In this document: piece by piece, positions 27,964 to 51,841 of the stretch
Position numbering within the stretch: the first letter of the stretch is position 1
How the letters are laid out: the number at the start of each line of letters is the position of its first letter
Assembly: GCA_965198005.1 (NCBI GenBank)
Contig: CBDAOI010000004.1
Span: forward strand, 64,001-128,000
DNA length: 64,000 nt
DNA from: Spirochaetia bacterium
GTDB lineage: Bacteria > Spirochaetota > Spirochaetia > SZUA-6 > Bin103
Direction of reading: 5' to 3'
Program-made: the position numbers and the translations under genes
Notes under the pieces: generated by a model
The model's database searches: none
What the model was told of the DNA's origin: nothing
Seen by the model: the letters and a program-made list of their open reading frames with translations, nothing else

Positions 27964-28418
27964 GCTGTCTCCAGTGATGCTGTCACAGCGTCCGATCGTT
28001 CGTTCAACGCTCGGAACAGTCCACTCTCCGGTGCAACACGTGTATAGAACTGTGGCGGATGAAAGGAACGGGCTACGCGCCTTATGCTTCTTATCGGCAT
28101 CGGATCATCCAGCCTTCTCACTCCCTCTAGCAACAAGGCAGACACTTGAGGTCGATCGCCGACGTAGTGCTCGAATCCCACCCAGTCGATACACATTTGA
28201 CTGCGGAAGCGTCTCCATATCGCCACGGGACTATCATGGACTACCGACTTTACTTCTGCCATAGCGACGATTTCGCCTACTGGGCGTGTGACGTAGATCC
28301 AGATCGTCGTACCTGGCTCGATCCTGACGATCCTGTTTCGAAGCTCCACCGTCTTGGAACCACACAGCACCAGTTTGCCGTATGCAGGCTTGAGTGATAT
28401 GATCACCTGCTTCATCAC
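27960..28418 (-). CDS. ASCH domain protein
   Basis: IISLKPAY..LVLCGSKTVELR, IYVTRPVGEIV, PPQFY. Confidence 0.85.
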   Translation of the reverse strand: MMKQVIISLKPAYGKLVLCGSKTVELRNRIVRIEPGTTIWIYVTRPVGEIVAMAEVKSVVHDSPVAIWRRFRSQMCIDWVGFEHYVGDRPQVSALLLEGVRRLDDPMPIRSIRRVARSFHPPQFYTRVAPESGLFRALNERSDAVTASLETA

Positions 28419-29017
28419 ACTACAGCCTCTCCGAATCCTTCCTTAACGATACCCATAAGTGCCTCCGATGAGACGCTCCGAGCAGTCCTGAGATTGGCGC
28501 CCCCAACGCAGTCCATTTGCTTGAGCTTCTTGAAGTCGATGCTCACAGGAAACTCCAATACATTATCGAATGTGAATATCGTAATCTCGTTACGATCGTT
28601 TGCGCGTTGACCTATTTCGTCCTCCGTCAACACTCCTTGTCTGTTCAGGTTCGTCACTGCCTGAGTTTTCGTAATGGTGTCCGAGAATGTCACCCTGGCT
28701 AGTGCAACTGCTTGCCCGCGCTTTCCACTCGCATAGAACACGACTATCGTTCCTCGCGGAAACAGTCTATGCACTCCAGCTCTGAGGTAGTAGACTCTCT
28801 CGATCCGCAAGGCGGACTCGCTCTGCCAAAACACTCCTTCGGACCGTGTTTGGGGAAGGAGTTCGTCCGAATACCGTTCCTTGATCGGGACAACCACCGC
28901 GGATCGTCCCGGCCCAATCAAGTACCCCGGAGAAATGAACGTCTCAAAATCGAAGAGTGTCATCGTGAAGGATGGCTGACCACTATCGCGCCCGAGGACG
29001 ACACCGGTGTTGCTCAT
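28415..29017 (-). CDS. EVE/ASCH-like domain protein, probably the C-terminal remnant of a larger GNAT/PIN-associated protein
   Basis: VVPIKERYSDELLP, ERVYY, GTIVVFYASG pattern; coupled to the ASCH gene. Confidence 0.55.
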   Translation of the reverse strand: MSNTGVVLGRDSGQPSFTMTLFDFETFISPGYLIGPGRSAVVVPIKERYSDELLPQTRSEGVFWQSESALRIERVYYLRAGVHRLFPRGTIVVFYASGKRGQAVALARVTFSDTITKTQAVTNLNRQGVLTEDEIGQRANDRNEITIFTFDNVLEFPVSIDFKKLKQMDCVGGANLRTARSVSSEALMGIVKEGFGEAVV

Positions 29018-31347
29018 CTCGACAGGATTTCCGGTACGACCTTGGCGAGTAGAATGCCAAGGTTTTGGTCCCAGAAATGAGTTCCCGCTTGTATGTCAGC
29101 GAGAGCGAGGTCCAGAGCTCTGAGGTAACGGTCGACCATGCCGTCAACCGACGCGGTATCCATGCGGGCCACGGACGCGCGATCGAAGAGACATTCGACC
29201 GCTTTCGCATCGTTAAGGCGAATCAGCGTCGCCATCGCCCAGTACGGAGAGTGAGGAGCGACGCGAGACAAGGCTCCCGCCGCGGTCCTCGTGGCGATCG
29301 TACATCCGGGCATTCGAAAAGGTACGCCGGCTTCCTCACAAAATCGCAAGAATCGGTACGCGGTCAACGTCTCCGTGTCCTCGCGTTGGAAACTGCGACC
29401 CTGGGTGACCCTGCCGATGTCGAACGTGAACTTGCGCGTCGTGTTCTGTTTGTGCTCTGGCGGTCGATCTAGAGCGAGTTCAAATACTTCGAACTCCCCC
29501 CACGGGTCGCAACCGAATTGCCGAAGCGTATGCCAGCGGTCTGTGAAATCCTTGGCGGACTCCTCATACTTGGAGAGCTCTCCTGCCGGGAAGACCAACG
29601 CCAGTTGCACAGAGCGAAGCAGGAGCATGACGATCGACTCCTGCGAAGCAAGAGAATAGTCCGTTGTAACGGGCTTGAGGTTCGACCTGGTACGGATCGC
29701 TGCAAGGGAATTCTCAAGAATCCTCGCGGCATCTCGCAGTTGACCGATTTCTGCGAGCAGACCGGCGCGTTTCGCTTCCCAGAACGGTAGCGAGTCGTCT
29801 ACCGGCCACTCCTCGATCTTCTTCTTGACATCCTGCGGGTCAGGAGCGAACAGCGCGGCGAGCGCTCGTTCGTAGTGGAACCGGGCTCTATAGTCGGGGG
29901 ACATCGTTGTCACTAGGCCCTCGATCCTTTCGCAAGTGCCGTTCCACTTCTCCTGCAGGCCCTCTTCGCGGAAGTACCGCAACACCGCAAGTAACAGGTG
30001 ATGACACATGTCGCGAACCCCGCTTTGAGGGAGGCTTCGCCCATTCGTGTCCTTCGAGCTCGACGGCGATGAGTCGGTCGGAGCGTCAGCACCGGTCAGA
30101 GGTAAGTACCGATTCAGAGTGAGCTCAAGAAACTCGATCTGATTGTCGAAGATGGGGCACTGGCACTTCTCCATTCGCCAGATCAGCTCGAACGCAAACT
30201 CTAGATCGAGACTATCTGAAAAGCTGTCCGGGACTGGCAGTTTTCGAACCCACTCGCGAGTGGACCGCCAGAGAGCGACACGACGGTCGTCGGGAACGAT
30301 AACCCAACCCGGATACGAGCGCCGCTGGTCTCTCCACGTTGGCACGAGGCTGGAGATCTGGGAAGCTATTGCCTTATCCTTTCCACTGGTGTGAGCGTGA
30401 TCATCGTGTGGCCATCGAAGCCGACTGTAGTCTCTCTGTCTGGAATCGAAATAATCGGAGAGTCTCCGACTATGGTCTCTCCTTCTGGAGTCGAAAAAAT
30501 CGAAGAGTCGATGGAGCGCCTTGTTGTGGTCATCGGCGCCAATGTCCGGATACTGGGACAGGTCCACGCATACGATGTTTCGTTCGTCGAGTAGTTTCTT
30601 CTGGGAGTCGGACAGCCGGTATACGCCGACGAGATACATCTTGGGAGCGTCTCGGCGGCCGAGGTTGTCTGCGATCCATCCAATCCAATCCAGGAAATTG
30701 CGATCGTCGCCGGAGAAACCGATCAAGCATAGCGTGTTTTCCAGAAGTGCCTGACGAATCGTATTAACGAACGGTGCATGATCTTCCCGATAGCGGCGGT
30801 AGTCTTCGTCGGTGACGATCAGCCGAGAGGCGGGTGACAAACTGCCATGGAGTTTGACGATTCGTGGCCGGTCCGAGTTGATGAGATCCTGTTGATCGAC
30901 TACGATGCCGTATTTCTGCGAAGCGACCGATCTGCACGCTCTCTCAAGGAGAGTATCGTAATTGGTTGTGAAGACGTCCGACCACGGAAGACTGAGCAAC
31001 GCTATGTGTAATTCTGCTGGCTCGTGGTCCTCATCCGGAATGGCAGAGTTCAGGATCCGATCCAGAGCTGGCCGACCGAGGGTGGCTTCAACCTCTTTGG
31101 CCAAGGTTGGGACGCTGAGATACTTGGCTCCAGCGTCAGGCTGTTTGTGGTGAAGTTTCTCGTAGAACAGGTCTCCCAGCCCGGACCAGTCCGGAAACTG
31201 GGGAGATGAACCACCCCGCGGTTGCGCGTTCCGGCTAAAGCCGGATCCGATCATGACGGCCGCATGACCGGAGAACAGACGCTCGGCAATTTCGTTCAGA
31301 TACGGATAGAGATCGGAAGGAACTGGAGGGGATTCCGGTTCACTCAT
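29014..31347 (-). CDS. SIR2-family anti-phage NADase, Dsr1-like, apparently C-terminally truncated
   Basis: AVMIGSGFSRNA, FTTNYDTLLE, KLHGS, LIGFSGDD, then a long helical region that stops at VVPEILSR. Confidence 0.8.
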   Translation of the reverse strand: MSEPESPPVPSDLYPYLNEIAERLFSGHAAVMIGSGFSRNAQPRGGSSPQFPDWSGLGDLFYEKLHHKQPDAGAKYLSVPTLAKEVEATLGRPALDRILNSAIPDEDHEPAELHIALLSLPWSDVFTTNYDTLLERACRSVASQKYGIVVDQQDLINSDRPRIVKLHGSLSPASRLIVTDEDYRRYREDHAPFVNTIRQALLENTLCLIGFSGDDRNFLDWIGWIADNLGRRDAPKMYLVGVYRLSDSQKKLLDERNIVCVDLSQYPDIGADDHNKALHRLFDFFDSRRRDHSRRLSDYFDSRQRDYSRLRWPHDDHAHTSGKDKAIASQISSLVPTWRDQRRSYPGWVIVPDDRRVALWRSTREWVRKLPVPDSFSDSLDLEFAFELIWRMEKCQCPIFDNQIEFLELTLNRYLPLTGADAPTDSSPSSSKDTNGRSLPQSGVRDMCHHLLLAVLRYFREEGLQEKWNGTCERIEGLVTTMSPDYRARFHYERALAALFAPDPQDVKKKIEEWPVDDSLPFWEAKRAGLLAEIGQLRDAARILENSLAAIRTRSNLKPVTTDYSLASQESIVMLLLRSVQLALVFPAGELSKYEESAKDFTDRWHTLRQFGCDPWGEFEVFELALDRPPEHKQNTTRKFTFDIGRVTQGRSFQREDTETLTAYRFLRFCEEAGVPFRMPGCTIATRTAAGALSRVAPHSPYWAMATLIRLNDAKAVECLFDRASVARMDTASVDGMVDRYLRALDLALADIQAGTHFWDQNLGILLAKVVPEILSR

Positions 31348-31431
31348 GCAGTTTCCATGATAGCATCCAGTCACGACTTCCAGAAGCGTCGCTATTCATT
31401 GAAATCGGCGTCAGAGCGCGGTCGAACTGAG

Positions 31432-34400
31432 TCAGGTGCCGGCGTCACGCAGCGACGTCTGGCCTGCCGCTGGCGTCTCTCCTCGTCTTGGGCGCACGTC
31501 AGGCGCGCCGCGGACGACCTCGTCCGCAGCGCGTTCAGCGTTGAGGGCGAGGAGGCGGGCGAGCACCTCGTCGCGGACGGGGTCTGGCCAGCGGTAACGG
31601 TATGGCTTCCTTTTTTGGCCCCAGGTTGCCTCGTCGATTTGGTAGTCGAGGAGGAATTCGCAGTCGGTGCGAATGTCGTCCCAGCCGTAGGCATCGAGCA
31701 AAGCGCGGTCCATGGCCGTGTGCAACTCGCGGAGCTGGACGATCCGCGGATCGGTCTCATAGATGTCGTGAAAGCGGTTGTACGTACGCGTCATGCCTTC
31801 GGTGTTCGCCACCATGATCGCGGCGCGGTACTCGTAGTAGGAACGTCCAGCGGCTTCGAGCGAGCGATCGGCTTCCCAACCTCCCGGGAATGGAAAGGTT
31901 TCGAAACAATCGGATGGAGAGTAGTTCATATCGTCTTTCATCGTGGAGCTAAAGAACCTTGCCCAGACTTCGTGCGCGTTCGATTGCAGCGCACAGAAGG
32001 CTGAAAGACTCTGAAACGGAAAGACAGCCAGTTTGTGCGAGAATACCACCCTCAGAGGGAGGAACGTAAAGACAACCCTGTTGCTGACGATTGAACACAC
32101 GATTACCTGATCCAGTCCCTCGATCGTGGAATATAGCGCGGGCTGTCTGTCACCAAACTGCCACCATCGGACTCGCCGGACTTGCCTGTTTACCTTCATT
32201 CGCCCGGGCTTCACGCGACGTGCCACAATCGCCATGAGATCGGGCCAGCGTCGCCGGCACTCCTCCTCGCTTCGCCCGCCGAAGTTGATCACGTAGCGGT
32301 GGTGGGTATGGGTGGGGCTGGTGTTGACCTCCTCGCCGCCGATGTAGGGGAAGATGACCTCGCAGTTGCGCGGGTCGGATTCGATGAGCCGCTGCATTTC
32401 GGCGAGTGAGGACGCAACGCCTTTCCGGTCGGTGTCGTCGAAGGTGAAGCCCATGCCGAGGACGATGCTGCCCTGGAAGCTCTTGCCGGCGTTGGCCGCC
32501 AGCCGTACCGGGTCCGCGTGGCCGCCCCGGTGGAACAGGAACGCGGTGATATTGTCGACGCTCGCGCCGTCGAGCGCCTTGTGGCCGCGAAACGGACCCT
32601 TGGCGACGTGGAGAACACTTACGATGACGGCCGCTTCGCCGGGCCACTGGACCCGCTTGGTAGCGCGGTAGATCTCGCCACCGTGCTCGCAGATCCAGCG
32701 TAAACCGCTGGAGCGGGTATCGCCCTGGGCGATGGTGTTGGTGGCGATCAGGCCGAATGTGCCACCATCGCGAACCAAGTTGAACGCACGCCGGTAGAAG
32801 TGCGCCACGAGGTCGGCATTGCCGTGGCTCTCCTCATGCATCTCCTTGAGCCAACTCGGGTAGGCGACAATGTTGCCGGCCGCGACGTTGTTCTTGCCCG
32901 CGAACGGCGGGTTGCCGACGAAGCCGTCGAAGCCGGGGTTGTCGCGCTCGAATGCCTCGGGGAACTCGATTTCCCAGTGGAACGGAGCGAACGGCAGCTC
33001 CGCGTTGCGGCGCCCGTCCATCTCCACCGCGTGACGCCACGCCTCTCCGGTGAGGATCGCCTCCTGGTAGGCGGAGCGCCGTGACTCCCGCTCCTTTGGC
33101 TTGGCGCCCTCGAAGAATGCGGCGAGCACGAGATCGCCGAACAGGCGCACTTCGCCGACTGCGTCCTGAGCTTCGCGCCAGAGGTTCTGCAAGCGGCGTT
33201 CATCGACGGTGTCGTCGGCTTCACGGATCTGCCGCCGCAACTCCGATGCCGCTTCCACGGCTTCGCGCACGCCGAAGCCAGTGAGGATCGGCTGCCCAGC
33301 CTTCCAGTTCAGCGATTCGATCTGCTGACGGGTCAGCCCGACGAGCGAGTCGCCGTGACGGAACGCATGGTCGACGAAGGTGAGCGGATGGTCGCGCGCG
33401 AGCGTGCTGAGCCAGAGCGAGACCTTGGCGAGGTCAACGGCCATGGGGTTGCGGTCGATGCCGTAGAGGCACTTCTGAGCGACGAGCCGACGGGCGAAGA
33501 TCACCTCGTCTTCATCGGGTGGAATGTCCGGCATGGAGCCGTGAGCGCCCCACGCGTCGATCAGAGCGTCGGCGAGCTGGCGACAGGTCTCGACCAGGAA
33601 TGCGCCGGAGCCCATTGCCGGATCGCAGATCTTGAGGTCCAGGATTTGCTCCGGGGTCGGCGCCCGGCCGTCCTCGCCTTTCAGCCGATCGAGCAGGGGT
33701 GCGAGGGTGTGACGAACAATCGGCTCGGTCAGTTCGCGCGGCGTGTAATGGGAGCCGGAGCGCCGTCGTTCCTCGTTGGGTTGCAGTACCAGAGCGCCAG
33801 GCGGGGCGATGTCGGGCGTCGCGTCCTTGTCCAGAACGCGGTCCAGCGCCACGTGCAGATCGACCACCGTCTCCGCTTCCCGGAGCCCCTTCGCAACCCT
33901 GTCCGTGATGGTGCGGCCCGCGCGCTCCTGAAACCACCGCCTGCGGCTGGCGCTCGGCTGAGCCAGCAGCGTGTCAAGATCGATTGTGTTCGGTGCTCCG
34001 AGCTTCTTTGCCGGCTTGATGGCAACCGAGCGGCCGGTGGCGGTCTCCAGGCGAAAGCCCATGATGGTCTCGTACACGGAGCCGATCTGCTCCACGTCGA
34101 GCGTGCGGTACGAGATGCGCTCGCCGTCGAGCACAAGCAGCTTCTCCAGCACCCGGTAGATGACGCCGTCGGAGATGCGCGGCGGCACAACGCGCTCAAT
34201 CGTCTGCCGGGCACCGCCGCCGCTACGGCCTTCAAGGAATCGGAAGCGATCGGGGTCGAACAGAGCGCCGCGGCGCTCCGGAAGGCTTACGGCGCCGCCG
34301 GTGCGATGGGCGCGTGACCCATCGTGGATGAGGCGAAACAGCACGAGAAGCTGCGCCCAGGCACCGAAGCGCTGGTCCATGGTGTCCGGGTTGAGCGCCG

Positions 34401-35400
34401 CATCCTCGCGCAAGCGCTGGTAGAGGCCGGTGAGCGAGTAGTAGCGCGCGAAGTTCTCATCGTCCGGCAGCATGCCACGTTCCTCGGCGTAGAGCAAAAA
34501 GACCAGGCGCAGGATGACGGAGAGCAGGCCGCGGTAGATGTCGTTGCGGTCGCCGTCCTCGGACAGCGGCTCGCCCAGGAGCTCGCCCCCGGAGGAGTCG
34601 TGAGCGGTTTGGAAGCCGCGGAGGAGTTCGTACAGGGCATGGAGCACTTGCTCCGAGAGGCGCTCGGAGACCTCGTTCTGGTACTTGCGGCTGCTTTCGA
34701 GCAGCGCGGCGAGCCGCTGATCGCGGGGCAGTGCCAGCAGCCGCTGTTCGGATAGCAGCAGGCGCAGCGCCGAGCAGAGCGGGCGCCCGGCGGTGTTGAT
34801 CAGGTCCGCGAAGCGGAAGTCCATCCAGCCGGAGCTCTCGCCTCGGGGGGCAGAGATCAAGCGTAGCGCGACGCCGTTGAACAGCACACCGGCGGGGACC
34901 CCGGTGCCGCGCAGAAGGCGCTCCACTCGGCCCTGGGGAGATGCCTCCAGTCCGCCGGCGCCGGACGTCGCCTTGTCGAAGTCTTGTCCGACGGCGAGCA
35001 CCTGCACGAGCAGTTGCCACGGCGATGTGCCATTCCGAGGGTCACGTTCACGAATTGCGAAGTCCGGGTGCAGCGTCTCGTCGTAGTCCGGGAGAACGAC
35101 CGCCAGATCGGCCGGGACGGGAGACTCTGCCGTGCCCGCGTAGCCCCTGGACGAGAAGCCCCAGCCGAGGACCGCGCTCGCGAACTCTTGGAAGTCTCCC
35201 ACGCACGGCCCGGGATCGCGTCCTGGGAAGACCGTCGGTTGGTGGACGCACCCGGCGAGCAGCGCCTGCCCCTCCGCATCCTGACGGTTCAGGATCGCAC
35301 CCGCCTTGACCAGCGCCGGAGCCGAGACCACCAATCCGTTCGGTTGGATGAAACCCAGCCACTCGAGGTGGGCGCGTGTGTTCGGGTCTTGCGCGGGCAT
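31432..35400 (-). CDS. drmMI: DISARM class I N6-adenine DNA methyltransferase DrmMI
   Basis: GSHYTP, DPAMGSGAFL (motif I), GNPPF (motif IV), C-terminal target-recognition region. Confidence 0.9.
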   Translation of the reverse strand: MPAQDPNTRAHLEWLGFIQPNGLVVSAPALVKAGAILNRQDAEGQALLAGCVHQPTVFPGRDPGPCVGDFQEFASAVLGWGFSSRGYAGTAESPVPADLAVVLPDYDETLHPDFAIRERDPRNGTSPWQLLVQVLAVGQDFDKATSGAGGLEASPQGRVERLLRGTGVPAGVLFNGVALRLISAPRGESSGWMDFRFADLINTAGRPLCSALRLLLSEQRLLALPRDQRLAALLESSRKYQNEVSERLSEQVLHALYELLRGFQTAHDSSGGELLGEPLSEDGDRNDIYRGLLSVILRLVFLLYAEERGMLPDDENFARYYSLTGLYQRLREDAALNPDTMDQRFGAWAQLLVLFRLIHDGSRAHRTGGAVSLPERRGALFDPDRFRFLEGRSGGGARQTIERVVPPRISDGVIYRVLEKLLVLDGERISYRTLDVEQIGSVYETIMGFRLETATGRSVAIKPAKKLGAPNTIDLDTLLAQPSASRRRWFQERAGRTITDRVAKGLREAETVVDLHVALDRVLDKDATPDIAPPGALVLQPNEERRRSGSHYTPRELTEPIVRHTLAPLLDRLKGEDGRAPTPEQILDLKICDPAMGSGAFLVETCRQLADALIDAWGAHGSMPDIPPDEDEVIFARRLVAQKCLYGIDRNPMAVDLAKVSLWLSTLARDHPLTFVDHAFRHGDSLVGLTRQQIESLNWKAGQPILTGFGVREAVEAASELRRQIREADDTVDERRLQNLWREAQDAVGEVRLFGDLVLAAFFEGAKPKERESRRSAYQEAILTGEAWRHAVEMDGRRNAELPFAPFHWEIEFPEAFERDNPGFDGFVGNPPFAGKNNVAAGNIVAYPSWLKEMHEESHGNADLVAHFYRRAFNLVRDGGTFGLIATNTIAQGDTRSSGLRWICEHGGEIYRATKRVQWPGEAAVIVSVLHVAKGPFRGHKALDGASVDNITAFLFHRGGHADPVRLAANAGKSFQGSIVLGMGFTFDDTDRKGVASSLAEMQRLIESDPRNCEVIFPYIGGEEVNTSPTHTHHRYVINFGGRSEEECRRRWPDLMAIVARRVKPGRMKVNRQVRRVRWWQFGDRQPALYSTIEGLDQVIVCSIVSNRVVFTFLPLRVVFSHKLAVFPFQSLSAFCALQSNAHEVWARFFSSTMKDDMNYSPSDCFETFPFPGGWEADRSLEAAGRSYYEYRAAIMVANTEGMTRTYNRFHDIYETDPRIVQLRELHTAMDRALLDAYGWDDIRTDCEFLLDYQIDEATWGQKRKPYRYRWPDPVRDEVLARLLALNAERAADEVVRGAPDVRPRRGETPAAGQTSLRDAGT

Positions 35401-35402
35401 CG

Positions 35403-35876
35403 TCAGCCTTGTGGCACCCGACAGAGATCGCGAGCCGCAAGGAGACCCCGATGCGCATCCGTGACGTTGGCGTTCCTGGCCGTCGTGTAGATCTTGCCGC
35501 GCGGTCTCGCGACGATCTCCGGATTCCCGAAGTCATCGATCAGTGCCGCGTCGTTGGTGTAGAGCAGACGCGCCCCACTCACCAGCGCGAGCGCAAGCAC
35601 ATGCAGGTCGTCGGACTTGCACACCCCCTTCCCGAGGAGGCCTGCGGCATGATCGTCCACTACTTCGTCAGTCACTGAGCGAGCGCGTCCATTTCTGAGG
35701 GCGCTCCTGAGCCACTGGAAGAATCGCCGGTCCCGGGCCAGCTCCTCTCGAAGTTGACCGCCGACCACCAACTGTCCGCGTGGGCTCGACAGCCAATCAA
35801 AGAATCGTCTGCCAGCCGGAGGGCGGTCGCTTCCAAATACTTCGTATGCCACGTTGGCATCGACGATGGCGCACAT
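35403..35876 (-). CDS. PIN-domain protein, copy 2
   Basis: IVDANV...EEL...SDDLHVLALA...LLYTND supplies the four PIN acidic positions. Confidence 0.72.
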   Translation of the reverse strand: MCAIVDANVAYEVFGSDRPPAGRRFFDWLSSPRGQLVVGGQLREELARDRRFFQWLRSALRNGRARSVTDEVVDDHAAGLLGKGVCKSDDLHVLALALVSGARLLYTNDAALIDDFGNPEIVARPRGKIYTTARNANVTDAHRGLLAARDLCRVPQG

Positions 35877-37229
35877 TTACAGTCCGATCGACCGCCTCGT
35901 TTCTTCCATGAAGAACTGACCATAGCCGTCCGGTGCATCCCACAGGTTGCCTTGTTCATCGAATCTCAAGGAATGGATATGAACGTCAAGATCGGCCCTT
36001 TCGAAGAACAAGATGGAAACATCCTCCGGCTTCAGACCCGTCTCACGGTCGCGGATGTCCATGCGAACACGATCGACGATGTAGTCGCTGTGTGTTTCGA
36101 CAATAAGCTGGCGACCTGACGCGGCGCTCGTGCAGAACAGGCTTCCAAGAGCCGCCTGGGCGCTGGGATGGAGGTGCACTTCAGGCTGCTGCAGAAGGAA
36201 TCGCGGGTATCCGTCCTCAATGAGTAGCTCCAGCAACAGGGGCAGCACTTGGCTAACGCCATATCCCACGTCGATCAGGTTGTGCTTTGCACCCTTGCGT
36301 TTGCCGTGCTTGCCCCACTTTCGCATCTCCAATTGAAACGGTTCATATTCATGCTTGCCAAGCCGTTTGACAAATATCTCGTTAAACAGACCTGACTTGT
36401 GCCCGAATTGTTCGATCCGCTGCTTCAACTCGTGCCACTGCTCCGAGTCTCGAGCGTGAGCATCCGCGAGGAATGCCGGCACCGAGCTTCCCTCCGGATC
36501 GCGCACGATCCTCACCGGATCGTACGTGCGGAGCGGGCTGGATCGGGTGGGTCCTCCCGCAAACGCACTTGCACTGAACAAAGCACCCTCTTCATAGAGT
36601 TTGGCGAAGTCGTGATAATCGCTCTCGGTGAGGATCGCGTCAGTATCTCCCGTCAGCGGCTGCAGCTCACCCGCCGTGCCGCTCTCCGCAGCGACGCGTA
36701 GGAACTGCGCCATCGTAGACGCTCCTCCGCCGTAGATGTAGTTGTCGTTGGGTCCGCGCCCCAAAGCGGGCAGCCGCCAAGAACCGCTCGCGCAACCCAG
36801 TTCGGTGCGAGGGTTCGAATCGCGGCGTTGGTCTCTGATCCACACACCTGCGGCGCTCCACACTACGGTGGCAAGGGCGGGGGAAGCGCCCTTGCCGAGG
36901 GTAAACGTCGCGTCAAATTCGACGGACTCAACCGAGTTTCCCGAACACTCGAAGCCAATGCTGAACGATTCGGCGCCTGCACGGCGGCTATCTTGTGCGT
37001 GATGGGCGATCTCATGGAACGATCCGAGATCGTACGGCGCACTGCGAAAGTCGGGGTCCTTGTGGTAACTTGCGACTTCGAGAATCGCCTTTACCGCGGC
37101 GAGAAAAGAGGTCTTACCGGTGCTGTTGTCGCCGAGCAGCAACGTCAGCGGCGCCAAGCGAGCCGCCTGCTGCTCGCGAAAGCAACGAAAGTCACGGAGT
37201 CTGAGTTCCTGTAGCGGTTGGTGGTCCAT
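35877..37229 (-). CDS. ABC-type ATPase (AAA_21 with DUF3696-like C-terminus), copy 2
   Basis: DFRCF, GDNSTGKTS, VGYGVSQ, LLQQPEVHLHP, VETHS. Alternative GTG start at 37247. Confidence 0.88.
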   Translation of the reverse strand: MDHQPLQELRLRDFRCFREQQAARLAPLTLLLGDNSTGKTSFLAAVKAILEVASYHKDPDFRSAPYDLGSFHEIAHHAQDSRRAGAESFSIGFECSGNSVESVEFDATFTLGKGASPALATVVWSAAGVWIRDQRRDSNPRTELGCASGSWRLPALGRGPNDNYIYGGGASTMAQFLRVAAESGTAGELQPLTGDTDAILTESDYHDFAKLYEEGALFSASAFAGGPTRSSPLRTYDPVRIVRDPEGSSVPAFLADAHARDSEQWHELKQRIEQFGHKSGLFNEIFVKRLGKHEYEPFQLEMRKWGKHGKRKGAKHNLIDVGYGVSQVLPLLLELLIEDGYPRFLLQQPEVHLHPSAQAALGSLFCTSAASGRQLIVETHSDYIVDRVRMDIRDRETGLKPEDVSILFFERADLDVHIHSLRFDEQGNLWDAPDGYGQFFMEETRRSIGL

Positions 37230-37243
37230 CGGTGCTCCCGTGG

Positions 37244-37720
37244 TCACCCCGCCCTGGGTCCGATACAGAGGTCCGCGTCAAGCAGCTTCCGGTGTTCAGC
37301 CGTGAAGTGGCCATCGGGTCGCGACGTGTAGATCCGGCCCGCTACACCTGGAATGACTGCGGGGTCCGCAAAGTCACGCTGCAAACGGCCGTCATCCGTA
37401 TAGAGAAGGCGAGCACCGCTCGCCAAGGCAAGCGCTATGATGTGCACATCGTTGGACTGAAGATTGCGGGATTGGCCGAGTTCGTCCTCGTATCGACGGA
37501 TTCGGGCACCACCAATCTGTCGCACGCGGCCGCTCACACGCCGTGCTTCCAGCAGCCAGCGTCCGAAATTGCGATTGTGTGTGAGTTCCTCCGAGACTCT
37601 CCCACCGACAACAAGCTGTCCACGCCCATCATCCAACCAGTTCCGAAAACGAATACCCGCCGCGGTTCGCTTTCGGCCGAATACTTCGAACGCGACGCTC
37701 GCATCGACGATGGCGCACAT
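37244..37720 (-). CDS. PIN-domain protein, copy 1
   Basis: IVDASV...EEL...SNDVHIIALA...LLYTDD; paralog of 35403-35876. Confidence 0.72.
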   Translation of the reverse strand: MCAIVDASVAFEVFGRKRTAAGIRFRNWLDDGRGQLVVGGRVSEELTHNRNFGRWLLEARRVSGRVRQIGGARIRRYEDELGQSRNLQSNDVHIIALALASGARLLYTDDGRLQRDFADPAVIPGVAGRIYTSRPDGHFTAEHRKLLDADLCIGPRAG

Positions 37721-39066
37721 CAGTAATCGATTACTCGCTTCAGTTCGTCCCGGAAGAATCGTCGGTATCCGTCCGGTGCATCGAGCACGTTGCCTTCGTC
37801 ATCAATGCGAATTGAGTGGATCGTGACGGACAGGTCATCCCGTTCGAAATAGAGGATCGATACGTCGTCCGGCTCCAGATCGGATCGTTTGTCGCGAATG
37901 TCGAGCAGGATGCGGTCAAGAATGTAGTCGCTATGCGTTTCGACGATCAGTTGACAGTGGGACCCCGCCGAGGCACAGAACAGGCTGCCGAGTTCGGCCT
38001 GCGCGCTTGGATGCAGGTGTACCTCCGGCTGCTGCAGCAGGAACATTGACGCTCGGTCGTGCCGGAATAGCTCCACGAGCAGTGGCAGAATCTGACTGAC
38101 GCCGTAGCCTACGTCGATCAGATTGCGTCTTGCGCCTTTGCACGTCTTGCCCCGCTTGCGTACTTCCAACTGGAACGGCTCGAACTCGTGCCGGCCAAGT
38201 CGCTTCACGAACACATCGTCGAACAGTCCAGACTTGTGGCCAAACTTCTCCAGATCACTCTTCATGTCCTGCCACGCATCGGGATTCCTGGCATGCACGT
38301 TCGCCAGGAACGCTGGAGTCGAGACCCCCTGCGGATCTTGCACCAGCCGTACCGGATCGTACGTGCGCAGCGGACTGGACCGAATCGGCGCCCCGGCAAG
38401 AGCTCCCGATGCGAACCTGTTGTTCTCAACAAACAGAGCGATCAATTCGACGACGTCACGCTCCGTGGGCACCAAGTCAACATCGCCGTGCAGCGGCTGC
38501 AGCTTTCCCGGCATGCCGCTCTCCACCGCAACCCCCAGGAGTAAGTTGACCTTGGCGGTGTCTCCGCCGTAGAGATAGCGACGATCGCGATCCGGGACCG
38601 GCGGCAGACGCCATGAGCCGCTGGCGCATCCCAGGTCGGTGTAGGATCCTTCTGTGTCGCGATGCTCTCGCACCCACACGTCTGCGGCGCTCCAGCGTAC
38701 GGTCGAGAGCTTCGGAGCGGCGCCGTCACCCAGCGTGAAGGTGGCGTCCACGGCGACTGGTTCGCCCTTCTCCCCAGCGTACCTGAAACCTATACCGAAC
38801 GATTCGGCTCCGCCACGACTGCCGGTTGGATCCTGGCGATATGCAATCTCGTGAAAAGAGCCGAGGTCATAGGGCGGGGCACGGAAGTCGGGGTCTTCGT
38901 GGTAGCTACCGACCTCCAGCATCGCCCGTACCGCGGCCAGAAACGACGTCTTTCCGGTGCTGTTTTCGCCGATCAGCAGCGTCAGCGGCGCCAGGCGCGC
39001 AGTCTGCTGTTCTCGAAAGCAGCGGAAGTCGCGCAGTCTGAGCTCCTGCAGCGGTGGCTGATTCAT
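37720..39066 (-). CDS. ABC-type ATPase (AAA_21 with DUF3696-like C-terminus), copy 1
   Basis: DFRCF, GENSTGKTS, VGYGVSQ, LLQQPEVHLHP, VETHS. Confidence 0.88.
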   Translation of the reverse strand: MNQPPLQELRLRDFRCFREQQTARLAPLTLLIGENSTGKTSFLAAVRAMLEVGSYHEDPDFRAPPYDLGSFHEIAYRQDPTGSRGGAESFGIGFRYAGEKGEPVAVDATFTLGDGAAPKLSTVRWSAADVWVREHRDTEGSYTDLGCASGSWRLPPVPDRDRRYLYGGDTAKVNLLLGVAVESGMPGKLQPLHGDVDLVPTERDVVELIALFVENNRFASGALAGAPIRSSPLRTYDPVRLVQDPQGVSTPAFLANVHARNPDAWQDMKSDLEKFGHKSGLFDDVFVKRLGRHEFEPFQLEVRKRGKTCKGARRNLIDVGYGVSQILPLLVELFRHDRASMFLLQQPEVHLHPSAQAELGSLFCASAGSHCQLIVETHSDYILDRILLDIRDKRSDLEPDDVSILYFERDDLSVTIHSIRIDDEGNVLDAPDGYRRFFRDELKRVIDY

Positions 39067-39076
39067 CCGATCCTCG

Positions 39077-42000
39077 TCATCCCGTGTCCGGCCAAAGATA
39101 CACCAGACCAACCGGCTCCACGCGCCGAGCCCGCACTTCGTAGAACTGGCGAATTCGGGGTGGCTCGGTTTCGAGGTCGCGGTCGAACTGGGTTAGGCGC
39201 CGGCGCCACGCGGCGACGTCGGCCTGTCGCTGGCGTTTCTCTTCGTCGTTGAACTCAAGGGAGAGCTGGACTTGGGCAGCCTCGTGCTTGCCGAGCTCCG
39301 CTTCGACGCGCTGGCGCTGGCGTTCCAGGGTGACGCGGAGCTGTTGAGCCTCACTCTCGCCTCGATCGCGCAGGGCGTCGGCCGCGCTTCGGGCGACCTG
39401 ATCGGCTCGCTCTTCGAGCTGCGGCAGCAGGTCGGTGATGTCCTGCGCGCCAGTTTCAAGCAGACGGCGGTGAACGGTCTCACTCGGGGCGTGCGCATCT
39501 CGCAGCGCGGACTCCAGGCGTTGGAGGGTCCGCGCTTCGGCCTCCCCGGCGTACGCTTTGAGCGGCCCCACGCGTCGCGACGGCTCGATCCAGCGCGCGG
39601 CGACCGGCGTCAGGATCTCGTGCAGGCGTTCGGCACGGCGGCCGTACAGGCACAGCCGGCCCAACAGGATCACCCGCGGGATCGAGTCGGCCGCCTGTAC
39701 CAGGCAGGCGCGGGACAGGTCGTGGTGGACGAAACCCTGGGCTCGGAAACGGGCCAGCAGGCGCTGCGCCATCCGCTGCTCCAGGTGCAGGTGCACCGTG
39801 GCGTCGGTGAGCACGCCGGCGTCCTCGAAGACGACCGGGCGGATGGGCGCTTCGCGCCGCCACTCGGCCAGTTTCTGGTTGCTCCTGCGTGGCACGCGCA
39901 GCGTATCCAGGGTACTGGTCCAGCTCGCGTCGGCCAGCGTCTGGCCGGTGAGCGGCGGGAACATCCACACCGGGGAGCCATCGTCGGCACGCTCTCCCTG
40001 CAACGGTTCGGCGCCCAGCAGCTCCAGCGAGCAGGACATCGCGTCACGGAACGGTTCCGGCTCGAAGTCCACCCAGCGGCGCGACCGATCCAGCAGCCCC
40101 CGGCAGCGCTCGATCTGATCCTTCAGATCCTCCTGCCGTTCGCGTGCCGCTTCGAGCTCCTCGGTGGCAACGCGCTTCTTCTCCTGGTCCAGGTCGGCCG
40201 CTTCGATCTCACGTGCAAGCCGTGTCGCCTCCCGGTGACGGATGCCACCGCGCAGTCGGCGCTCGATGTCGTCGTCGATCACCTTGGAGAGGCTGCCGAG
40301 CTCGCGCTTGATGGTCTGGGTCTTCCTGACCAGCACTTCCAGCACGCGGTCCTCGGCGCGTTGCGGGAGCGCGAAGTAGTGGCAGCGTACCTCCGGCGCC
40401 GGTTGCAGCTTGCGGTCGATGCGCCCGTTGCGCTGCTCGATCCGGCCGGGGTTCCAGGGCAGGTCGAAGTGGAACAGGTCGGTGCAGTGCGCCTGGAAGT
40501 TCAGCCCCTCGCGGGCGGCGTCGGTGGCGATCAGGATGCGCAGCGGATCGTCCGCCGGGGCCGCGTTGAAGCGGCGCTGGATCTCCCTGCGGTTGGCGCC
40601 CGCGGTCTGGCCGTCGATGGTTTCGATCCGCTCGTCGGCGAGGTCGGTGCCGGCTATGGCCTGCCCCAGCATCTCGCGCAGGTAGCGCTTGGTGCCGATC
40701 ACGTTCTCGGTGAAGATCAGCACCCGCCCGTCGTTCCAGCGGGGACGGTCGGGACACAGGTGGTCGTCGATCCAGTGGATCAGCTTGCGGGTCTTCGCGT
40801 CAGGCCGGCCGCGCGCGGCGGAGGCCACCTCCTCCATCCGGTCGAGCAGGTCCTGTTCGGTGTGCCACAGCGCCTCGGCATCCGGAGTCCGGCCCGATGC
40901 GCTCTCGGCTGCGGCGTTGATGGCGGCGATCTGGGTTGCCTCTTCCGCCGCGTTCTCCTCGTCCGTGCGCTCCGCGCGATCGTCGTCGGCGTCGGGGGGC
41001 GTGGCGAACCGGGATGCGGCCTTGGACGCGAACGCATCGCTGCCGGCGGCCGGGACCTGGCCCTCACCGGCCGCGAAGCGCTCCCACTGCTCGCGGGCCG
41101 TCTTGCGATGCCGCGCCAGAGAAATGGCGAACGCCTCGATCGACGACAGCAGCTTCTGTTGCAGCCCCACCACGAGCAGTCCGGCCGCGGCGCGGGTGCG
41201 CGCGGGTACGTCTTGGAACCGGGTCTCCCGCACGTGGCGGTACTCGTCGAGCAGCCGCGACAGCACGAGCTCCGGCGCATCCTCCGGCAACCCGTCGATC
41301 ACTACCCGGCACACCTCGCGTTTCGGGAAACCGCCCTGTACTTCGCGGATGTCCTCCTTGAGGCGGCGGACCATGACGTCTTCCAGAGCGCTCTTGCCGC
41401 GCACCGGCACTCCGCGCGTGAAGCGGTAGGGGTCGAGCAGCTCGAGCAGGGTGGCGAAGCTGTTGGAGTGGCCGTTGTGAGGTGTGGCGGACAGGAACAG
41501 GCGGTGCTCGAAGCGGCCGCCGAGCTCGCGGATGGCGCGCGTGAACTTGGTCTCGATGCCGTAGCGTCCGCCGCTGGACGGCGCCGCGTGGTGGGCTTCG
41601 TCCAGAATCAGCAGGCTGCCCGGCGCCAGGTCGCCGAGCCACTCCCGCATCGGGTCCGCGTAAGCCGAGTCGATGAGCAGATTGTGCGACACGATGAAGC
41701 GGCTGTGGGTGCGCCACGGATTGACGCCGAAGCCCCGGTCGCGGCGCACCTGCGCCAGGTAGGCGCGGTCGAGAATCACGAACAGAAGCCCGAAGCGTTC
41801 CTCCATCTCCGCCTTCCATTGCTCCATTACGGAAGCGGGGGCTGCGACCACCACCGTCCGCGCTCGCTTGCGCAGCAGCAACTCGCGGGCGATCAGGCCG
41901 GCTTCGATGGTCTTGCCGAGGCCGGTGTCGTCGGCGATGAACAGGTTGACGCGCGGCAGGCGCAGCGCCTTGCGCAACGGCTCCATCTGGTAGGCGTCGA

Positions 42001-42349
42001 GCTTGATGCCGGCGCGGAAGGGCGATTGGAACAGGTTAGGATCGGTGCCGGTGATGCAGTTCCAGCGCAGCGTGTGCAGGAACGCGCTGAAGTGGCGCGG
42101 CGGGTCGAAGCCCTTGGCGCCGAGGTCGGACCACGCTTCCTGCTCCAGGATGGCGCGGTCGATCTCGAAGTCCCAGTACACTTCCAGGGTCTGGCCCTGG
42201 GCATCGTCGTCGGCGCAGGCCAGGCTCACGCGCGCGCACTCGCGTGGCGGCGTCTCCACGGCTTCCACCAGCCAGCGCCGCGAACGCACCTCGACCAGCT
42301 CGCCGAGGTGCGGAGGCCGGTTGGGGAGCAGTCTCATCGGGCGGGCCAC
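39077..42349 (-). CDS. drmD: DISARM SNF2-like helicase DrmD
   Basis: VRSRRWLVE, ADDTGLGKT, DEAHH, LSATPHNG, EGLNFQ, WNPGRIEQRNGRIDR, EPVGLVYLWP. Start 42349 or 42337. Confidence 0.93.
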   Translation of the reverse strand: MARPMRLLPNRPPHLGELVEVRSRRWLVEAVETPPRECARVSLACADDDAQGQTLEVYWDFEIDRAILEQEAWSDLGAKGFDPPRHFSAFLHTLRWNCITGTDPNLFQSPFRAGIKLDAYQMEPLRKALRLPRVNLFIADDTGLGKTIEAGLIARELLLRKRARTVVVAAPASVMEQWKAEMEERFGLLFVILDRAYLAQVRRDRGFGVNPWRTHSRFIVSHNLLIDSAYADPMREWLGDLAPGSLLILDEAHHAAPSSGGRYGIETKFTRAIRELGGRFEHRLFLSATPHNGHSNSFATLLELLDPYRFTRGVPVRGKSALEDVMVRRLKEDIREVQGGFPKREVCRVVIDGLPEDAPELVLSRLLDEYRHVRETRFQDVPARTRAAAGLLVVGLQQKLLSSIEAFAISLARHRKTAREQWERFAAGEGQVPAAGSDAFASKAASRFATPPDADDDRAERTDEENAAEEATQIAAINAAAESASGRTPDAEALWHTEQDLLDRMEEVASAARGRPDAKTRKLIHWIDDHLCPDRPRWNDGRVLIFTENVIGTKRYLREMLGQAIAGTDLADERIETIDGQTAGANRREIQRRFNAAPADDPLRILIATDAAREGLNFQAHCTDLFHFDLPWNPGRIEQRNGRIDRKLQPAPEVRCHYFALPQRAEDRVLEVLVRKTQTIKRELGSLSKVIDDDIERRLRGGIRHREATRLAREIEAADLDQEKKRVATEELEAARERQEDLKDQIERCRGLLDRSRRWVDFEPEPFRDAMSCSLELLGAEPLQGERADDGSPVWMFPPLTGQTLADASWTSTLDTLRVPRRSNQKLAEWRREAPIRPVVFEDAGVLTDATVHLHLEQRMAQRLLARFRAQGFVHHDLSRACLVQAADSIPRVILLGRLCLYGRRAERLHEILTPVAARWIEPSRRVGPLKAYAGEAEARTLQRLESALRDAHAPSETVHRRLLETGAQDITDLLPQLEERADQVARSAADALRDRGESEAQQLRVTLERQRQRVEAELGKHEAAQVQLSLEFNDEEKRQRQADVAAWRRRLTQFDRDLETEPPRIRQFYEVRARRVEPVGLVYLWPDTG

Positions 42350-42368
42350 GGGCCGGCGCAGCGGCGGC

Positions 42369-43655
42369 TCAGCGCTGGTCCATCGGGACGTAGGGGCGTT
42401 CGGTGGGGCCGGTGTAGATCTGGCGCGGGCGGGCGATCTTGTATTCGGGGTCGTGAATCATCTCGCCCCACTGCGCGATCCAGCCGGGGAGGCGGCCGAT
42501 GGTGAACAGGGTGGTGAACATGTTCACCGGGATTCCGATCGCCTGCAGGATGATGCCGGAGTAGAAGTCGACGTTGGGATAGAGCTTGCGCGCCACGAAG
42601 TAGTCGTCGCGCAATGCGATCTCCTCGAGCTGGACCGCGATGTCCAGCAGCGGGGTGGAGACGTGCAGCCGCTCCAGCACCTCGAAGCAGGCGCGTTTGA
42701 GGATCAGCGCGCGCGGGTCGAAGTTCTTGTAGACGCGGTGGCCGAACCCCATCAGCCGGGTCCTCGCCCGCTTGTTCTTCACCTTCTCCAGGAACTGGCG
42801 GCCGTCGTCGCCGCCGGCGTGAATCCGCTCCAGCATCTCGATCACCGCCTGGTTGGCGCCGCCGTGCAGTGGCCCCCAGAGCGCGTGCACCCCGGCCGAG
42901 ATCGCCGAGAACAGGTTGGCCTGCGAGCTGCCGACGATGCGCACCGTGCTGGCGGAGCAGTTCTGCTCGTGGTCGGCGTGCAGCAGGAAGATCAGGTCCA
43001 TGGTCCGGGCCACCAGCGGGTCGACCTCGTACTGCTCGGCCGGCGTGGCGAACATCATGTGCAAGAAGTTGGGGGCGTAGCCGAGCCGGTTGAGCGGCGA
43101 CATGAACGGATGGCCGATCGAATGCTTGTACGAGTAGGCGACGATGGTCGGCACCTTGGCGATCAGCCGGTGGGTGGCGATCTCGATCTCGCGCTCGTCG
43201 GAAACATCCATCGAGTCGGGGTAGAAGGTGGACAGCGCGCCCACCACGGCGCCGGTGATCGCCATCGGATGCGCCTGCTTGGGGAACCCGGTGTAGAACC
43301 GCTTCACGTCCTCGTGCACCATCGTGTGGTAGGTGATGTGGCCGGTGAACTCCTCGAGCTGCTCCCTGGTCGGCAGCTCGCCGTAGATCAGCAGCCACGC
43401 CGCCTCCAGGAACGAGCTGTGCTCGGCAAGCTGCTCGATCGGGATGCCGCGGTAGCGCAGAATGCCGCGCTCGCCGTCGATGAAGGTGATGCCGCTGCGG
43501 CAGGAGCCGGTGTTGCCGTAGCCCGGGTCCATGGTGATGACCCCGACCTGCGCGCGCAGCCGCGAGATGTCGATCGCGACCTCGTTCTCGGAGCCCCGCA
43601 CCACCGGCAACTCGTAGTCTTTCCCGTTCACCTGTAACCGTGCCGGCTCCGCCAT
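42369..43655 (-). CDS. gltA: Citrate synthase (type II)
   Basis: DPGYGNTGSC, LHADHEQNCS, GPLHGGAN, GFGHRVYKNFDPR, YPNVDFYSG. Confidence 0.97.
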   Translation of the reverse strand: MAEPARLQVNGKDYELPVVRGSENEVAIDISRLRAQVGVITMDPGYGNTGSCRSGITFIDGERGILRYRGIPIEQLAEHSSFLEAAWLLIYGELPTREQLEEFTGHITYHTMVHEDVKRFYTGFPKQAHPMAITGAVVGALSTFYPDSMDVSDEREIEIATHRLIAKVPTIVAYSYKHSIGHPFMSPLNRLGYAPNFLHMMFATPAEQYEVDPLVARTMDLIFLLHADHEQNCSASTVRIVGSSQANLFSAISAGVHALWGPLHGGANQAVIEMLERIHAGGDDGRQFLEKVKNKRARTRLMGFGHRVYKNFDPRALILKRACFEVLERLHVSTPLLDIAVQLEEIALRDDYFVARKLYPNVDFYSGIILQAIGIPVNMFTTLFTIGRLPGWIAQWGEMIHDPEYKIARPRQIYTGPTERPYVPMDQR

Positions 43656-43972
43656 CGCCCCGCTGCCCGCTTGCCCGCCGCCGAGTATACGCCCGCGGGC
43701 CGAGCCGTGCAACCCGAGCCCGGCCGGCTCGGCCGGCTGCGGCCGGCCGCCGGCGCCGCCGGTGAGTAGGCGGCCGGCGCTGCAGGCCGGGGCTACCAGA
43801 CCTGCGTCAGGTCGACGGCGACATCCGCCGGGTTGGCCATCGCTACCCGGTGGTGGAACGCGCCGCGCTCCACCAAGTCGCCCCGGTCGCTCGTTCGCCG
43901 TCGCCGGCAGACGCCTGCCCGTGCGCGTGTACTCTGAGCTGTGGTATGCTATGGTGGAATGGAGGATAGCCC

Positions 43973-44788
43973 ATGGCCAGCCCGATGCTCGCACCCGCCA
44001 AGGTTCACTACCCCTCATCCGACGGCCGGCCGATGGCGGAAAGCGACTTCCAACGCACCCCGCTGACCTACGCCGTCGACCGGCTGCGGTTCCACTTTCG
44101 CGACCGCCGGGACGTGTACGTCTCGGGCAACCTGCTGCTCTACTACCAGGAGGGGAATCCGCGGGCGGTGGTGGCGCCCGACGTGTTCGTGGTGCTGGGC
44201 GTATCCAACGCCGACCGCTCCAGCTACCGGCTGTGGAAGGAGCGCAAGGTGCCTGACTTCGTGCTGGAGATTACCTCGCGCTCGACGTACCGCGAGGACC
44301 AGGGGAGCAAGCGCGAGGTGTACCGTGCGCTGGGGGTGCGGGAGTACTGGCAGTACGACCCGACCGGCGACTATCTGGAGCCGCCGCTGCAGGGCCTGGA
44401 GTTGAGCGCGGGGGAGTATCGGCGGCTGCCGGGGCGGGAGTTGGCGGACGGCACGCTGGCGCTGGCGAGCGGCGTGCTGGGGCTGGAGTTGCGGGTGACG
44501 GCGCGGGGGCTGCGGTTCCACGATCCGGACACCGGGCAGGACCTGCCGAACCTTGCGGAAACCGACGAGGCGCGGCAAGCGGCGGAGACGCGCCTCGCGC
44601 AGGAAGTGGCGGCCCGCCAGCAGGAAGCGGCGGCCCACCAGCAGGAAGCGGCGGCCCACCAGCAGGAAGCGGCGGCCCACGCAGCCGCGCAAGCGCGGGT
44701 GGCCGAGCTGGAGGCCTTGTTGCGCCGGGAGCGCGGCCGCGAGTCCGGTCAGGACGGCAATCCACCGGCGCCTCGTCAGGGTCGGTAG
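43973..44788 (+). CDS. Uma2 (DUF820) family PD-(D/E)XK endonuclease, copy 1 (271 aa)
   Basis: YPSSDGRPMAES, APDVFVV, PDFVLEITS.ST..ED, GVREYWQYDP; coiled-coil tail. Confidence 0.88.
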   Translation: MASPMLAPAKVHYPSSDGRPMAESDFQRTPLTYAVDRLRFHFRDRRDVYVSGNLLLYYQEGNPRAVVAPDVFVVLGVSNADRSSYRLWKERKVPDFVLEITSRSTYREDQGSKREVYRALGVREYWQYDPTGDYLEPPLQGLELSAGEYRRLPGRELADGTLALASGVLGLELRVTARGLRFHDPDTGQDLPNLAETDEARQAAETRLAQEVAARQQEAAAHQQEAAAHQQEAAAHAAAQARVAELEALLRRERGRESGQDGNPPAPRQGR

Positions 44789-49845: not shown

Positions 49846-49854
49846 AGAAAGAAA

Positions 49855-49898
49855 GGGAGCTGGGAGGCTGTCGCCTGCAGGCGCGCTTCCCAGCTCCC
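49855..49898 (+). terminator. Strong stem-loop between SBP and permease (also 57194-57237); mRNA-stabilising or partial terminator
   Basis: gggagctggga...tcccagctccc inverted repeat; no poly-U tail on the plus strand. Confidence 0.6.
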
Positions 49899-51825: not shown

Positions 51826-51841
51826 GTGTGGCGCAGGTTCG

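Follow-up and report, generated by a model that had tools for sequence, protein, structure and literature searches.

The stretch of DNA analysed here, called the window below, comprises 64,000 nt from a Spirochaetia bacterium (GCA_965198005.1, contig CBDAOI010000004.1, positions 64,001–128,000 of the forward strand). Between the DISARM genes drmD and drmMI it carries two consecutive copies of a gene pair encoding an ABC-type ATPase and a small PIN-fold protein. With a probability of roughly 0.62, we read these copies as a stack of two alleles that diverged long ago, each of them an autonomous defence module with two genes, for a DUF3696-tailed ABC ATPase and a translationally coupled, stand-alone PIN. 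In broad terms the module is of the HEC-03 kind (ABC ATPase plus PIN), and is linked to the Menshen protein NsnB through its ATPase. In minus-strand order, the genes of the locus are the following:

39077..42349, minus strand: DrmD, SNF2 helicase of class 1 DISARM and upstream flank of the cassette slot (PADLOC DrmD 1.8e-302 over positions 11-1088; Pfam SNF2-rel_dom and Helicase_C).
37720..39066, minus strand: ATPase1, ABC ATPase with DUF3696 tail, 448 aa, ATG start (Pfam, PADLOC, AlphaFold2, Foldseek).
37244..37720, minus strand: PIN1, predicted stand-alone PIN-fold nuclease, 158 aa (Pfam PIN, AlphaFold2, VIA-align).
35877..37229, minus strand: ATPase2, the other ABC/DUF3696 ATPase, with 450 aa if started at the ATG, or 456 aa if started at a GTG at 37247 (Pfam, PADLOC, BLASTP against ATPase1).
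35403..35876, minus strand: PIN2, second stand-alone PIN, 157 aa (Pfam PIN below cut-off; BLASTP against PIN1; family alignment).
31432..35400, minus strand: DrmMI, N6-adenine methylase of class 1 DISARM and downstream flank of the slot (PADLOC DrmMI E = 0, 1300 bits; Pfam Eco57I, MmeI_Mtase and N6_Mtase).

The overlaps or gaps between these genes do not exceed 14 nt. The stop of DrmD (39077) lies 10 nt from the ATG of ATPase1 (39066), base 37720 is common to the stop of ATPase1 and the start of PIN1 (TGATG), the TAA of ATPase2 and the ATG of PIN2 abut at 35877/35876, and 2 nt separate the stop of PIN2 (35403) from the ATG of DrmMI (35400). At the PIN1/ATPase2 junction there is a 4-nt overlap if the GTG start is taken, or a 14-nt gap with the ATG at 37229, the latter giving an N-terminus (MDHQPLQELRL) that agrees with ATPase1 and with the rest of the family. 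The four open reading frames (ORFs) within 35403–39066 are all intact and, being long and having hundreds of homologues, they are not a matter of chance. The two copies show 63% identity between the ATPases (451 columns, BLASTP) and 48% between the PINs (157 columns, BLASTP 1e-44). An earlier, sequence-only reading of this DNA had described two intact but diverged copies and listed the first four of these junctions, and in both respects it was correct. A scan of positions 31000–44500 for promoters and terminators gave counts no higher than shuffle level. Short contigs from four metatranscriptome runs of a single study, 95–99% alike, cover both ATPases and PIN1, and one of them bridges the PIN1/ATPase1 junction (37366–37770), so that evidence for expression is positive, although weak.

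The assignment of the small proteins to the PIN fold, also proposed from the letters alone, was borne out by several methods. PIN1 matches the Pfam PIN family (PF01850) at 3e-7, and its AlphaFold2 model is confident, with a pLDDT (predicted local-distance difference test) value of 91.6. Although Foldseek found no match for this model at E ≤ 0.001 (best E, 1.6e-3), a wide search with VIA-align placed the VapC chain 5x3t_B first, with a Z of 9.9 and a root-mean-square deviation of 2.7 over 120 residues, and the proteins ranked 1 to 28 were described as VapC or toxin–antitoxin, as PIN-domain, or as uncharacterised archaeal or bacterial proteins. A comparison of the PIN profile with the sequences of PDB chains gave only spurious matches (designed TIM barrels, SusD). 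The motifs IVD, EEL, [ND]D.H and YT[ND]D are found in both PINs and correspond to the four acidic positions anticipated by the earlier reading, D6, E45, D91 and D110, which are invariant in 34/34 members of the PIN family in the alignment. When the set was widened to 120 diverse cluster representatives, no change was seen at D6 or D91, with E45 and D110 retained in at least 90%. Fold and conserved acidic residues, the two marks of a PIN-domain nuclease, are thus both present, and the window PINs are predicted nucleases with a confidently modelled PIN fold and the D-E-D-D set. Four further residues of PIN1 (C2, H93, H143 and C152) are invariant in 34/34 close members, with C2, H93 and C152 retained in at least 90% of the 120 diverse PINs; judging from this pattern, they could be a candidate metal site tying the C-terminal tail of the PIN to the active-site region.

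Regarding the ATPases, Pfam assigned AAA_15 (1.2e-19), AAA_21 (4.1e-17) and a C-terminal DUF3696 (1.4e-6) to ATPase1, and the same three families (1.5e-16, 3.8e-16 and 5.9e-4) to ATPase2. In PADLOC, the best match of ATPase1 was NsnB of Menshen (2.2e-44), followed by PDC-M55A (1.9e-33) and HEC-03B (5.5e-26), and that of ATPase2 was again NsnB (6.2e-44 over 12-442), with the HEC-03 ATPase model at 5.9e-23; models of AriA, PtuA and GajA were matched only partially. The AlphaFold2 model of ATPase1 (pLDDT, 85; predicted template modelling score, 0.88) shows an ABC head, which Foldseek relates to Rad50/SMC heads (E 7e-13) and to the retron PtuA (6e-11), in agreement with the ABC type originally proposed. 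By sequence, no solved structure was closer to the ATPase than fragments of OLD, PtuA or GajA. The Walker A (GENSTGKTS), Walker B (LLQQPE) and H-loop (ETHSD) motifs of ATPase1 were recognized, and the blocks G-x-N-S-T-G-K-T, L-x-Q-Q-P-E-x-H-L-H-P and E-x-H-S are invariant in 42 aligned ATPases of the family, with flanking positions conserved at 90% or more. Consequently, the canonical Asp-Glu of Walker B is Gln-Gln family-wide. One relative, the ATPase at L078:8618-9997, carries an in-frame stop codon, and is a possible pseudogene or the product of an assembly error.

The region around residues 90–230 of ATPase1 is a hypervariable insert. Identity between ATPase1 and ATPase2 in successive blocks of 40 columns is 85, 72, 58, 55, 45, 52, 55, 68, 78, 68, 65 and 36%, and conservation among 81 ATPases of the family is 0.25–0.45 at residues 91–210 versus 0.68–0.84 elsewhere. 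The claim that the ATPase termini are conserved and the middles diverged therefore stands. The suggestion built on it, that the two copies have two sensor specificities, fits this hypervariable middle and may be regarded as consistent with it, at the level of sequence.

The pairing of the two genes was followed through the PIN, whose family gave 654 matches at E ≤ 1e-3 in a set of 1171 candidates. When 1.84 billion representatives were searched with a profile, 1858 of them matched at E ≤ 1e-3 (1261 at E ≤ 1e-10), the 1858 being representatives of clusters at 50% identity; among the 150 representatives listed, nearly all are stand-alone proteins of around 150–175 aa. Of 536 pattern candidates in GTDB species genomes, 438 encoded a relative; 80 loci (L001–L080), located by means of the PIN, were retained. 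In 80/80 of them the gene immediately upstream of the PIN, on the same strand, encodes an ATPase homologue, 76 of these ATPases having a coverage of at least 0.98, two being partial (L050, L060) and two cut by a contig end (L012, L025). The conservation of the pair among homologues, a check proposed at the outset, has thereby been made: ATPase and PIN form a conserved two-gene module, with a pairing as strict as the sample allows. Judging from the record titles of L001–L080, the family occurs almost only in uncultured metagenome-assembled genomes under many phylum labels. Near-identical PINs were found under different labels, as in L034 (Gemmatimonadota) and L046 (Latescibacteria), separated by branch lengths of around 0.03, which is either recent horizontal transfer or a binning error. 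The window genome itself carries, on contig C4, a third pair (L088:6180-7942), intact and distant (36% and 35% identity to pair 1), and the degraded remnant of another one (L089:5499-6153), with fragments of ATPase and PIN only.

With respect to the origin of the two copies, a quick maximum-likelihood tree of 79 PINs (IQ-TREE) grouped PIN1 with L001/L002 (SH-like approximate likelihood-ratio test, SH-aLRT, 96) and PIN2 with L008, L007, L011 and L016 (SH-aLRT 97), both subclades having members from DISARM slots of related genomes. As the PINs belong to separate subclades and the DNA of the two window pairs differs throughout, the arrangement is a stack of two old alleles and not a recent duplication. 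In addition, the ATPases of L007 and L011 are chimeric: their first ~240 columns, including N-terminus and insert, are 80–100% identical to ATPase1, and their last ~100 columns are 82–100% identical to ATPase2 versus 38–68% to ATPase1. In both cases a PIN of the PIN2 type follows, so these chimeras fit a modular organization in which a "tail + PIN" unit is exchanged separately from a "sensor insert".

How such a module could work is suggested by the behaviour of PARIS, Septu and Menshen or by models of them, as summarized by Li et al. (2025), by the genetics of HEC-03 and by the conserved catalytic residues. In Menshen, the ABC ATPase NsnB carries a DUF3696 tail, and NsnC starts with an inactive PIN-like domain (inPIN), which AlphaFold 3 places between two NsnB tails (Li et al. 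2025, PMC12065111). HEC-03, made up of an ABC ATPase and a VapC-like PIN and embedded in Hma systems, reduces plaquing, both genes being required (Payne et al., bioRxiv 10.1101/2024.01.29.577857). By analogy, an oligomer of the window ATPase would bind the PIN, probably via the C-terminal tail, following the model proposed for NsnB and the inPIN of NsnC, and would hold it inactive, while the hypervariable insert would recognize a phage cue. Binding of ATP would be the switch by which the PIN is freed or activated; Walker A is intact, and the change from Asp-Glu to Gln-Gln in Walker B suggests slow or no canonical hydrolysis. The freed PIN would then cleave RNA (tRNA or rRNA, as VapC does), translation would stop, and abortive infection or growth arrest would follow. 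Two alleles with different inserts and PINs would provide a wider range of triggers. A 1:1 complex of ATPase1 and PIN1 predicted with alignments obtained a score of 0.01 (mark 0.32), a result that counts neither for nor against this scheme. Homology to HEC-03 and NsnB and the embedding in defence operons make a defence role of the module plausible.

Several observations weigh against this defence reading. The defence function of the window family is inferred from its homologues, and a Walker B devoid of the canonical Asp-Glu makes ATPase activity uncertain as far as the motif indicates. As for the PINs, PIN2 reached only 5.5e-4 and 21.0 bits against Pfam PIN, slightly below the curated 23.6; no PADLOC model matched either window PIN at E ≤ 0.1, that of the HEC-03 PIN (PDLC04147) included; this latter model was matched by only 2 of 120 PIN family members, with a best E of 0.03; and hhalign between window-family and HEC-03 PINs gave a probability below 3%, that is, no detectable relation. 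The chimeras of L007 and L011 are equally explained by the physical linkage of the ATPase tail to the adjacent PIN gene, and across the family the correlation between distances of ATPase regions and PINs carried no tail-specific signal (Spearman 0.51–0.59 in all four regions). The contigs from RNA libraries are compatible with DNA carry-over. Finally, the pair occupies the slot between DrmD and DrmMI in 13/80 loci and lies elsewhere in 67/80, where the nearest gene on either side with 150 aa or more is mostly a housekeeping one (aminotransferases, dehydrogenases, transporters). The commonest Pfam families were DUF1156 (4) and DUF4276 (3) among 63 upstream neighbours, and AAA_21 (4) and short-chain dehydrogenases (3) among 65 downstream ones. 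When 120 neighbours were compared with PADLOC at E ≤ 1e-10 (8 more, from four near-duplicate loci, were left out), the 25 families shown included HmaB, DUF1156_MTase, MTase_II and mad3 (4 each), HEC-01A (3), PDC-M19B (2) and HEC-01B (2), none of those shown being matched by more than 4 neighbours, which makes enrichment in defence islands weak. The module is, then, autonomous; at times it is found within operons of DISARM or of an Hma-like type, and often it is solitary.

These same surroundings would also fit a selfish addiction module of toxin–antitoxin type, with the PIN as a VapC-like toxin and the ATPase as a non-canonical antitoxin, stabilizing itself and its island and spreading horizontally without any dedicated anti-phage role. 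Most copies being solitary among housekeeping genes, the structural likeness of the PIN to VapC toxins, the distribution across a large number of phylum labels, some copies being nearly identical between phyla, and the degraded remnants in the window genome (L089, and a broken HEC-03 PIN in L087) all agree with it. We nevertheless consider this explanation unlikely, given that the homologous architecture of HEC-03 protected against phage (bioRxiv 10.1101/2024.01.29.577857), that the module is repeatedly found within operons of DISARM and Hma, and that the hypervariable ATPase insert and the stacking of alleles fit an arms-race diversification. Addiction and abortive infection are, in any case, not mutually exclusive.

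The sequence-only reading had gone one step further than an autonomous defence module, and proposed that the pairs are wired into DISARM as a backup firing when a phage inhibits that system. The genes are indeed tightly packed within the operon between DrmD and DrmMI; the slot recurs in the 13 loci mentioned above; and, of 60 relatives of the window genome, 16 carry DrmD at E ≤ 1e-100, 14 of which have at least an ATPase of the family in the slot 3' of it. One ATPase + PIN pair was found there in 12 of the 16. The remaining four are an ATPase-ATPase-PIN arrangement with two ATPases and one PIN (L107, the same as L003, 350-3621), an ATPase followed by DrmMI with no PIN between them (L106:336-5691), a slot with fragments of a broken ATPase only (L109), and an empty slot in the most distant relative (L110, 71% DrmD identity), in which DrmMI lies 10 nt after DrmD. 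Two complete pairs in the slot were found in the window genome only. The flanking genes of relatives within the family are 77–91% (DrmD) and 72–88% (DrmMI) identical to those of the window, and the cassettes 49–81% (ATPases) and 43–89% (PINs), which marks the slot as a hot spot of diversity within a conserved scaffold. With 67/80 loci outside DISARM and a relative that keeps DrmD and DrmMI without any cassette, the unit is autonomous and not a part of DISARM. Class 1 DISARM has, moreover, been described with drmD and drmMI and without ATPase or PIN genes (a passage of bioRxiv 10.1101/2021.12.28.474362), and unrelated modules (a Dsr2-like gene and HEC-01-like pairs) are found in the same scaffold, as generally described for embedded defences (bioRxiv 10.1101/2024.01.29.577857). 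Functional wiring is for these reasons very improbable, and the claim was not sustained: the tie to DISARM consists of a shared operon and a hot spot of cassette exchange, positional and with no functional dependency.

That the pairs are a reduced Menshen that lost NsnA, with the PIN as a remnant of the inactive adaptor, would agree with NsnB as the best PADLOC match of both ATPases, with their DUF3696 tails and with the PIN-like start of NsnC (PMC12065111), but it can be set aside as scarcely credible because there is no ParB-DUF262 gene upstream in the window (DrmD and PIN1 are there instead), DUF262 is not among the Pfam families matched by at least 2 of the 63 upstream neighbours, the PIN keeps the D-E-D-D residues that all major inPIN families are reported to lack (PMC12065111) and has no C-terminal effector domain, and the two-gene form is found in 80/80 loci.

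Returning to the autonomous defence module, a broader scenario joining the three families can be offered tentatively, and is more doubtful than the module itself. The DUF3696-tailed ATPases (NsnB, HEC-03 and the window family) would share a docking mode in which the tail clamps a PIN fold; the window family, very large and unannotated, would represent a simple, perhaps ancestral, state with the docked PIN itself as the active nuclease, and the inPIN with fused toxin of Menshen a later elaboration. The slot between DrmD and DrmMI would be an exchange site where sensor inserts and tail + PIN units recombine separately, as in L007 and L011, and could be stacked, as they are in the window genome, to widen phage recognition.

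The rest of the DISARM operon lies downstream of DrmMI, and drmD, drmMI, drmA, drmB and drmC, each with its PADLOC match and all on one strand, make this a class 1 system. The remaining genes, also on the minus strand, are as follows:

19068-22556, minus strand: DrmA (PADLOC 1.1e-278).
17280-18999, minus strand: HEC-01-like pair embedded between DrmA and DrmB (PADLOC HEC-01A 9.8e-52, HEC-01B 1.3e-12).
15420-17246, minus strand: DrmB (PADLOC 4.8e-82).
14630-15478, minus strand: DrmC (PADLOC 1.3e-79).

Other insertions were also observed inside this scaffold: a Dsr2-like SIR2 protein (29014-31374, minus strand; PADLOC Dsr2 1.5e-291, covering only positions 5-748 of the 1222-position model), a PDC-M11-like pair (28415-29017 and 27960-28418, minus strand) and a HEC-01A-like ATPase (26737-27963, minus strand; PADLOC 2.3e-134). 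In another part of the window, a direct repeat was found at 48000-53100 and 55334-60800, with a start-to-start spacing of ~7.3–7.7 kb and blocks that are 83–100% identical, among which ORFs of 335 and 298 aa recur; either a segmental duplication or a mobile element present more than once accounts for it.

Provided that the family is active, it would constitute a widespread ATPase–PIN system missed by current defence finders, as PADLOC has no model for its PIN, and it would link HEC-03 and Menshen through a common design of ATPase tail and PIN fold. The relatives provide a natural series of alleles and chimeras with which the parts of the ATPase involved in sensing and in holding the nuclease could be mapped. 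In addition, the DISARM slot illustrates clearly how exchangeable defence cassettes can gather at a hot spot.

Compared with known systems, the window module resembles VapBC in the VapC-like PIN fold and acidic residues of its effector, and differs from it in that no small DNA-binding VapB antitoxin is present; instead, a 448- or 450-aa ABC ATPase lies upstream, overlapping or abutting the start of the PIN. With PARIS (AriA/AriB) and Septu (PtuA/PtuB) it shares the layout of an ABC ATPase as scaffold or sensor and a small nuclease as effector. In those systems, however, the effectors are TOPRIM (AriB) or HNH (PtuB) proteins, whereas the window partner is a PIN with no match to AriB or PtuB in PADLOC, and the ATPases are similar only around Walker A and in the C-terminal lobe.

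The likeness to Menshen is that both window ATPases are NsnB-like, having the ABC ATPase and DUF3696 tail that define NsnB along with a non-canonical Walker B (E-N in NsnB; PMC12065111), and a PIN-fold partner follows. The differences concern the other two components: no NsnA (ParB-DUF262/ParBDB) is encoded upstream of the window ATPases, where DrmD and PIN1 are found, and the partner is not a fusion of the NsnC type but a protein of 157–158 aa consisting of the PIN only, with D-E-D-D kept and no C-terminal toxin domain. Relative to Menshen, the window PIN would be adaptor and effector in one. The Menshen survey was seeded on NsnA, and pairs lacking it were outside its scope (PMC12065111).

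HEC-03 and the window module are both two-gene operons with an ABC ATPase of ~450–465 aa followed by a stand-alone PIN of ~160 aa, and the HEC-03 loci L090–L092 and L094 show the gene order of the window pairs, with overlapping start and stop. The window-type ATPase is homologous over its full length to five HEC-03 ATPases (hhalign probability 100%, E 9e-41, 393 columns, 23% identity), Walker B is non-canonical in both (EQPE in HEC-03 versus QQPE in the window family), and both are embedded in larger defence operons, HEC-03 in Hma and the window pairs in DISARM. Despite this, the window ATPases do not reach the level of members in the HEC-03 ATPase model (PDLC04148), which they match in the C-terminal half only (at the 5.5e-26 and 5.9e-23 given above), while a HEC-03 ATPase in the window genome itself (L087) scores 2.2e-207 over its full length. 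After this ATPase (L087:5549-7262, contig C3) comes a HEC-03-type PIN, which matches its model in two pieces only (3-37 and 77-157) and looks degraded, as the frame from its ATG stops after ~45 codons. Between the two PIN families, hhalign paired only residues 16-38 of PIN1 with 62-84 of the HEC-03 PIN, through a motif (A/G)G..F..W(L/I) that is not colinear, being located before strand 2 in the window family and, in HEC-03, past the second acidic residue; chance or a shared element of contact with the ATPase may explain it. Regarding nomenclature, PADLOC-DB labels the PIN model PDLC04147 (159 positions) as HEC-03A and the ATPase model PDLC04148 (458 positions) as HEC-03B, the reverse of the preprint text, which gives the name HEC-03A to the ATPase and HEC-03B to the PIN.

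The main texts searched contained no further description of such an ATPase–PIN pair beyond HEC-03 and Menshen. The pair had been put forward as an undescribed module. A search against named systems gives NsnB as the best match and HEC-03B as a weaker one for the ATPases, with no model for the PINs; since HEC-03 has already been published, novelty of kind cannot be upheld, although the family does escape the HEC-03 models of PADLOC. In conclusion, the window pairs belong to a large family, missed by current models, that is a variant of the HEC-03/Menshen kind.

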